DNA of 64,000 bases, from assembly GCF_003334765.1 (NCBI RefSeq), contig NZ_QOWT01000009.1, one strand, 5' to 3'. Under the pieces are notes generated by a model. That model had not been told where the DNA came from, ran no database searches, and was given only the letters and a program-made list of their open reading frames with translations. Both the position numbers and the translations under genes were made by a program. Shown here one piece after another: positions 36,821 to 37,099 of the stretch. Source of the stretch: Escherichia coli. GTDB lineage: Bacteria; Pseudomonadota; Gammaproteobacteria; Enterobacterales; Enterobacteriaceae. Position 1 is the stretch's first letter; each line of letters starts with the position of its first letter.

Positions 36821-37099
36821 ATGAAACGTAACCTGATAAAGGTGGTAAAAATGAAGCCTTATTTTGCTGCTTTGATGTTATCAGTCTCTGTTCTTCCTGC
36901 TTATGCTGGTCCGCTCGGTACTGCTGATAAAGCCGACCTACCGCAAAGCAATGTCTCCAGCCCAATGATGGCCCAGTCGCTCAGGCAACCAGACCTGCAA
37001 CCGATATCGACGGACAGGAAGACAGAATGTTTTCGCCTTTACACACCAGATCGCAAACCGGGAGTGAACTGCGTTCCTGATGGCTCGACAGGCCATTAA
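36821..37099 (+). CDS. yjbT: small putative secreted protein (92 aa; start may be the ATG at 36851)
   Basis: Track ORF 92 aa; MKPYFAALMLSVSVLPAYA resembles a signal peptide; better SD (aaggtggt) before the 36851 ATG. Confidence 0.55.
   Translation: MKRNLIKVVKMKPYFAALMLSVSVLPAYAGPLGTADKADLPQSNVSSPMMAQSLRQPDLQPISTDRKTECFRLYTPDRKPGVNCVPDGSTGH

Follow-up and report, generated by a model that had tools for sequence, protein, structure and literature searches.

The window analysed here, a stretch of 64 000 nucleotides from an Escherichia coli contig (NZ_QOWT01000009.1), carries between psiE and yjbH a small open reading frame on the plus strand (36821-37099), the coordinates of which coincide exactly with those of yjbT of E. 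coli K-12 MG1655 (b4620, YP_001165332.1, 'PF17089 family protein YjbT'). Window positions 34476-37176 were found to be an exact reverse complement of MG1655 (NC_000913.3, 4239700-4242400), with 0 mismatches over 2701 bases, and the gene name offered in a preliminary description of this DNA was therefore right. The frame encodes 92 aa, or 82 aa if read from an in-frame ATG at 36851, both as first described, and it runs on the opposite strand to psiE and yjbH, each of which lies on the minus strand. The HMM of PF17089 (YjbT) matched with an E value of 1.5e-65 and 217.6 bits, aligning protein residues 1-92 to model positions 1-92, and RefSeq PGAP names the same 92-aa protein (WP_001295279.1) 'periplasmic protein', an entry that is annotated in nearly all RefSeq E. 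coli. As both the sequence and the coordinates are identical to those of MG1655 yjbT, our finding is a previously annotated gene, and yjbT is already known as the gene of an uncharacterised small exported protein. New in this study are a likely mis-start of 10 codons, the localization of constraint to a C-x13-C module and two conserved palindromes upstream of the gene. The features of the locus are given below.

34622-36097, plus strand: xylE.
36141-36551, minus strand: psiE.
36659-36670, plus strand: first copy of the direct repeat CACCAAAGCCGG, bordering a second REP, most of which K-12 has lost.
36683-36722, no strand assigned: single REP in the psiE-yjbT spacer, with arms at 36687-36700 and 36706-36719 and a fold of -25.5 kcal/mol.
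36731-36742, plus strand: second copy of CACCAAAGCCGG, which reads CACCATAGCCGG in Escherichia locus L010 and is absent from L007 and E302.
36752-36771, no strand assigned: palindrome AATCACCC-N4-GGGTGATT, about 90 nt upstream of the start codon, a candidate regulator-binding site.
36805-36819, no strand assigned: small conserved palindrome or hairpin, TGTTCC-N3-GGAACA, about 39 nt upstream of the start codon.
36821-36850, plus strand: ten-codon N-terminal extension (MKRNLIKVVK) of the 92-aa form annotated in MG1655 and RefSeq, probably 5' UTR.
36839-36845, plus strand: Shine-Dalgarno sequence AAGGTGG, 5 nt before the ATG at 36851, from sequence and conservation.
36851-37099, plus strand: yjbT frame as read from the conserved start (82 aa and stop), probably the true coding sequence, from the start used by relatives, the Shine-Dalgarno sequence and PF17089.
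36851-36907, plus strand: Sec-type signal peptide MKPYFAALMLSVSVLPAYA with a predicted signal peptidase I cut at AYA/G, from hydrophobicity and the -3/-1 rule.
36908-37021, plus strand: variable Pro/Ser/Gln/Asp-rich linker of 38 aa, predicted to be unstructured, from a pN of about 0.50 and an AlphaFold2 model.
37022-37096, plus strand: hyper-conserved C-terminal module TECFRLYTPDRKPGVNCVPDGSTGH with two invariant cysteines (C-x13-C), from the codon comparison and the family alignment.
37105-37136, no strand assigned: hairpin with a perfect stem of 11 bp and a loop of 10 nt, located where yjbT and yjbH converge, a probable two-way terminator.
37146-39242, minus strand: yjbH.

Of 5426 complete E. 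coli genomes, 5414 carry the psiE-yjbH spacer with yjbT at a coverage of at least 80 %. Beyond the species the family is narrow. A search of 5.8 billion clustered proteins revealed near-identical Escherichia and Shigella sequences and few divergent ones, and an exhaustive profile search of 1.84 billion representative proteins found 13 at E ≤0.001. The named relatives outside Escherichia come from Kluyvera georgiana, Buttiauxella, Shimwellia pseudoproteus and Pseudocitrobacter, while a species-level genome scan recovered yjbT from Escherichia species and K. georgiana only. The preliminary description left the gene without a function, and none is provided by its fold, by solved relatives or by constant neighbours. 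A sequence-profile search of the PDB with YjbT gave no match even at E ≤10, and no family matching YjbT was present in NCBIfam, PADLOC or PHROGs. No function experiment on YjbT was found among the open-access full texts that name yjbT or b4620, the mentions of yjbT being made in passing (in a gSELEX table and a list of features). In one of these, the table names yjbT as the neighbour of an FlhDC genomic SELEX peak inside yjbH (PMC9962212); the sequence of the FlhDC site matches window positions ~37469-37510 on the reverse strand, as read by eye, which places it downstream of yjbT and not in its promoter. yjbT, one of the 'y-genes' that are still uncharacterised in E. coli K-12, features in every reference annotation, and its wider importance is small.

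We considered whether the frame could be a chance or decaying one within a REP-rich intergenic region, giving rise to no functional protein. The small size of the family, with its 13 representatives, agrees with such a reading, as does the existence of strains that have lost yjbT or carry a frameshift in it. The bovine E. coli isolate EC42405 lacks yjbT entirely, having a psiE-yjbH gap of 120 bp (L022, 4001-4120) in which only the first 87 bases match the spacer, and several database variants of yjbT are frameshifted (P0006 and P0010-P0014, one of them from Shigella flexneri), with the C-terminal module lost or out of frame, which suggests occasional decay to a pseudogene. Deletion in at least one strain and frameshifts in several others indicate that yjbT is dispensable. 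The pattern of substitution, however, effectively refutes the chance reading. Conservation of the frame in related genomes had been proposed at the outset as a check on the gene, and the frame is indeed kept in Escherichia, Kluyvera, Buttiauxella, Shimwellia and Pseudocitrobacter, with changes that, between E. coli and Kluyvera-like sequences, are mostly synonymous. In a codon comparison of E. coli against three Kluyvera-like sequences, the last 25 codons displayed 14-18 synonymous differences at ~18.5 sites, which is saturation, but only 0-1 non-synonymous differences at ~56 sites. In the same comparison the middle 38 codons gave a pN of ~0.50, and dN/dS for the whole gene was 0.09-0.21. Synonymous saturation alongside near-fixed amino acids indicates strong purifying selection that is concentrated at the C-terminus. 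The Shine-Dalgarno sequence, start and putative terminator are also conserved over five genera, and b4620 was transcribed in 7 of 7 samples of one directional RNA-seq study (PMC3734233). We therefore give the chance reading next to no credence; yjbT is a real coding gene, and selection on its product acts almost entirely on the last 25 residues.

The start codon of this gene probably warrants correction. The preliminary description had warned that so small a gene might be missed or mis-started; the first of these does not apply, as yjbT is annotated in both K-12 and RefSeq, whereas the second is supported by evidence favouring the ATG at 36851, which had been preferred from the beginning. The duplex with the anti-Shine-Dalgarno sequence has an energy of -8.5 kcal/mol at this ATG, against -3.3 kcal/mol at the annotated ATG at 36821, and when the 935 plus-strand ATGs of the window were ranked by this signal, 36851 fell in the top 2 % and 36821 at the 29th percentile. 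The purine-rich core of the Shine-Dalgarno sequence, (A/G)AGGTG, is retained in eight of nine aligned loci, the L012 locus having GAGGGTG. Relatives outside Escherichia are 75-85 aa long and all start at the equivalent of E. coli Met11, with N-termini of the form MK.YF..L.LS or, more loosely, MK/MT/MR-x-Y-F/W. Upstream in-frame starts were surveyed in 14 loci, five of them from Escherichia. An ATG ten codons upstream occurred only in the five Escherichia loci, and outside this genus none had an in-frame ATG within 20 codons; the nearby in-frame starts there were GTG only, mostly inside the Shine-Dalgarno sequence and 2-3 codons upstream. L012 carries an upstream in-frame GTG at 10 codons, L012 and L017 each have one in-frame ATG more than 20 codons upstream, and two of the surveyed loci have zero upstream in-frame starts.

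The 82-aa form is thus probably the true product, and the reference annotation of yjbT is probably 10 codons too long, because the upstream ATG is confined to Escherichia and the Shine-Dalgarno sequence at 36851 is strong. It is also conceivable that the annotated 92-aa form is right, or that both starts are used, in which case the precursor would carry a signal peptide of 29 aa, its n-region being unusually basic, and would yield an identical mature protein. The longer form is the one annotated in MG1655 and RefSeq, the Pfam model covers residues 1-92 and each of the five Escherichia loci examined retains the upstream ATG and its frame. Most of the sequences behind the Pfam model presumably came from Escherichia, however, and the length of the model is therefore not independent evidence. 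The upstream ATG is missing in all members outside Escherichia, and within the supposed extension a 1-nt indel between Kluyvera (GATAAGG) and E. coli (GATAAAGG) breaks the frame. This ATG also falls only 2 nt past the conserved hairpin and has the weaker of the two Shine-Dalgarno signals, and we consider use of the longer form unlikely. In MG1655 the two ATGs lie on the minus strand, the annotated one at 4240055 and that of Met11 at 4240025; shifting the reference start by these 30 nt would give a predicted signal peptide of 19 aa instead of 29 and leave the mature protein unchanged.

Read from 36851, the product begins with the Sec signal peptide that had been thought plausible, and its layout agrees with that assignment: an n-region of MK is followed by the hydrophobic stretch PYFAALMLSVSVLP, with a Kyte-Doolittle peak of 2.41 over 11 residues, and by an A-x-A motif before Gly (AYA|G). 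The sequence therefore combines the basic n-region, hydrophobic h-region and small -3/-1 residues by which Sec-secreted proteins are recognized, and in the homologues this layout is conserved, with small residues at the equivalent -3/-1 sites. A lipobox ([LVI][ASTVI][GAS]C) is absent, the E. coli signal peptide being free of cysteine, and the cysteines in the signal peptides of some homologues (LMTC, AAPC and IAPC) do not fit this motif. Export of YjbT and cleavage of its signal peptide are accordingly predicted from these motifs. The predicted mature protein has 63 aa, of which eight are Pro, six Asp and six Ser, together with two Cys (codons 37028-37030 and 37070-37072), in keeping with the Pro/Ser/Asp-rich mature part with two cysteines noted earlier.

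The mature protein appears to fall into two unequal parts. AlphaFold2, using a 10-sequence alignment, returned a model with a mean pLDDT of 56 and a pTM of 0.14, in which the only secondary structure is the helix of the signal peptide and one four-residue helix. The linker had a pLDDT of 52-58 and was modelled as coil apart from this short helix at residues 40-43. The model agrees with a protein that is small and for the most part disordered, in which the loop of the C-terminal module would be the only fixed element. The family alignment gave the module motif as T-x-C-[FY]-x(8)-[RH]-x-P-G-[VIL]-N-C-[VI]-P-D, with invariant positions T58, C60, P70, G71, N73, C74, P76 and D77 in the numbering of the 82-aa form. 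The periplasm is an oxidizing compartment, and there the two invariant cysteines of YjbT would be expected to pair as a disulfide. Functional work on YjbT is best aimed at the C-x13-C module, as nearly all of the constraint lies there.

Upstream of the gene, the palindrome AATCACCC-N4-GGGTGATT occurs as a single copy in the window, and its sequence and position are kept at loci of five genera, including loci without psiE. The smaller palindrome, TGTTCC-N3-GGAACA, matches the window once, where 0.13 matches are expected, and its arms, GTTC(C) and (G)GAAC, are kept in eight of nine aligned loci (L021 being the exception) with a loop of 3-5 nt. Neither palindrome was recognizable in the Shimwellia locus (L021), the most divergent of those compared. 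A scan for the sigma-70 consensus upstream of yjbT found nothing at threshold, and a weak candidate promoter, TTCCCA-17 nt-AAAAAT (36770-36798), was read by eye. With this promoter the large palindrome would sit near -44, a typical position for activators that overlap the -35 region, and yjbT may be regulated through it. Comparison of the palindromes with the consensus sequences of CRP, FNR, NtrC, FadR, RutR, IclR-type regulators and MqsA gave no convincing fit. A sigma-E reading (GGAAC…TCTGA) of GGAAC/CTGATAA, made by eye, was rejected because the spacing is 14 nt and sigma-E needs about 19; sigma-54 and sigma-28 readings of the same elements were likewise rejected on spacing, and the transcription start would be inside the Shine-Dalgarno sequence. 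The consensus RNA fold of the 5' region had an energy of -2.3 kcal/mol with almost no covariation, which leaves an RNA-structure role for this region unsupported. The two conserved palindromes offer a concrete entry to the regulator of yjbT and to its inducing condition. Opposite this region, PGAP calls a 47-aa 'hypothetical protein' (WP_000487766.1) with a TTG start at window positions 36677-36820 on the minus strand; its frame crosses the REP and the palindromes upstream of yjbT and abuts the annotated yjbT start, it is not in the MG1655 annotation and it is probably a spurious call.

The REP next to yjbT and the direct repeat CACCAAAGCCGG flanking it, both reported in the preliminary description, were recovered. 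The two REP arms, each of 14 nt, show 86 % complementarity, and the head GTAGGCCGGATAAG has 17 occurrences in the window against 0.28 expected. The element at 36683-36722 thus displays what defines a REP, namely a conserved head on an imperfect palindrome 35-40 nt in length, with many extragenic copies. A search of Rfam returned only sub-threshold matches to the REP-derived naRNA4, that of the REP having 29.3 bits and an E value of 0.006. Both 12-nt copies of CACCAAAGCCGG contain a REP-like core, GCCGG, and alignment with other Escherichia (L007 and L010) revealed two inverted REPs where K-12 has one. In K-12 the first of the two is mostly deleted, with the first CACCAAAGCCGG copy surviving at its flank. 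Among the 5426 complete E. coli genomes, 1225 (E302 among them) carry a shorter, largely unrelated spacer without the REP, in which only a degenerate trace of the 3' arm of the REP is seen. The variation of the spacer spans window positions 36637-36750 (L002, 1585-1640; also L007 and L010).

A target-site duplication caused by insertion of the REP was rejected as the origin of the CACCAAAGCCGG repeat, as REP-less strains have unrelated sequence there, not an empty site, and as other Escherichia species point to an ancestor with two REPs. Together, the two-REP ancestor and the unrelated spacer of REP-less strains indicate that the repeat is a product of REP-cluster turnover. A bearing of the repeat on yjbT is not evident, and the conserved upstream elements of the gene start downstream of it. 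The element resembles known REP/BIME palindromes in its head GTAGGCCGGATAAG, its imperfect palindrome and its membership of a family with 17 heads in the window. Unlike the usual REP/BIME, it lies in the shared upstream region of the divergent psiE and yjbT and not at a 3' end, and of the two REPs once clustered here it is the one that survives. Elsewhere, the window contains several BIME-like REP clusters, for example at 27451-27555, and five REP heads at 58329-58538.

The gene order psiE-yjbT-yjbH recurs in Escherichia, K. georgiana, Pseudocitrobacter and a metagenomic relative. This shared order would fit a YjbT that acts as an accessory of YjbEFGH exopolysaccharide secretion, for example as a periplasmic partner of the outer-membrane YjbH. 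Several observations stand against this. yjbT converges on yjbH and ends in a probable terminator of its own, and is therefore not part of the operon. The hairpin at 37105-37136 folds with -20.9 kcal/mol on the plus strand and -23.5 kcal/mol on the minus strand (z = -5.1 and -4.1), and a hairpin of differing sequence is found at the same place in every homologous yjbT locus; intrinsic terminators have a U-run directly after a GC-rich hairpin, whereas the tails here are short (UUUCCC on the plus strand and CAUUCUUAAU on the minus strand), and a terminator consensus scan made no call. The contexts of yjbT elsewhere are unrelated to yjbEFGH: it adjoins a CsbD gene in Buttiauxella izardii and a DUF2767 gene on metagenomic contigs whose YjbT protein clusters with that of Buttiauxella, it is located between abgT-like and nudK-like genes in Shimwellia and it has a GH1 glycosidase gene beside it on a Kluyvera-like contig. 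Even where the order is kept, a gene for a 151-aa hexapeptide-repeat acetyltransferase parts yjbT from yjbH in K. georgiana (L011, 5389-5844), and EC42405 retains yjbEFGH without yjbT. We therefore regard an accessory role as quite improbable.

Across the contexts examined, no constant neighbour pointing to a partner of YjbT was found. With its palindromes, Shine-Dalgarno sequence and probable terminator hairpin accompanying it in most of five genomic contexts, yjbT instead appears to be a self-contained single-gene unit outside yjbEFGH. A hexapeptide-repeat acetyltransferase gene is also the downstream neighbour of yjbT on the metagenomic contig L006. On the other side of psiE, xylE is missing in E302 and EC42405, where malG lies directly beside psiE, and likewise in K. 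georgiana and Pseudocitrobacter (L002, L022, L011 and L014); given these arrangements, xylE at 34622-36097 looks like an insertion or a presence/absence polymorphism in E. coli.

Taken together, the account that we think is probably correct is as follows. Translation would start at the ATG at 36851, rather than at the annotated ATG at 36821, and give an 82-aa precursor, which a 19-aa Sec signal would take over the inner membrane and which would be cut after AYA. The product would be soluble periplasmic YjbT, of 63 aa and ~6.8 kDa. Its N-terminal 38 residues would serve as a variable, disordered linker or spacer, and its last 25 residues would form the functional module, a loop of 13 residues followed by [VI]-P-D; the two invariant cysteines presumably close this loop through a disulfide that DsbA makes. 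This module may bind one specific, conserved envelope partner, as its near-complete conservation suggests, and YjbT would then act not as an enzyme but as a small inhibitor or ligand. A regulator that recognizes the AATCACCC-N4-GGGTGATT palindrome is probably needed for expression. The steps of identity, start and export are well supported by the sequence comparisons, and the binding role is suggested by the pattern of constraint.

A different reading of the same layout is that YjbT is a pre-pro-peptide, from which the linker would be cut off to leave a disulfide-closed peptide of ~25 residues as the active signal, toxin or inhibitor. The order of a 19-aa signal, a fast-evolving linker of 38 aa and a near-invariant, Cys-containing C-terminus of 25 aa would fit such a precursor, as would an AlphaFold2 model without a globular fold, and a conserved Thr stands right before the module, with D-[RH]-x ahead of this Thr in most members. 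Genes for a processing protease, an exporter or a receptor are nevertheless absent beside yjbT in all contexts, and this reading appears doubtful to us. The same low probability applies to its fuller form, in which YjbT would be the precursor of an envelope peptide, with the linker as tether or pro-region, induced by a candidate regulator at AATCACCC-N4-GGGTGATT. If this is true, Escherichia and a handful of related genera would possess a periplasmic peptide system that is new and of narrow taxonomic range. Our preferred reading remains that of the intact periplasmic protein, in which the loop is carried on its linker.

Among known systems, the one closest in design to such a precursor is that of the STa precursors. 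These have 72 aa and, like YjbT, possess a Sec signal of ~19 aa, a dispensable middle and a short, conserved C-terminus containing cysteines. This likeness does not extend to homology, as comparison by hhalign gave a probability of 12.7 % and was limited to the signal peptide, and it does not extend to the cysteines, of which STa has six, forming three disulfides, whereas YjbT has two. Finally, STa is plasmid-borne, whereas yjbT is chromosomal and nearly universal in E. coli.
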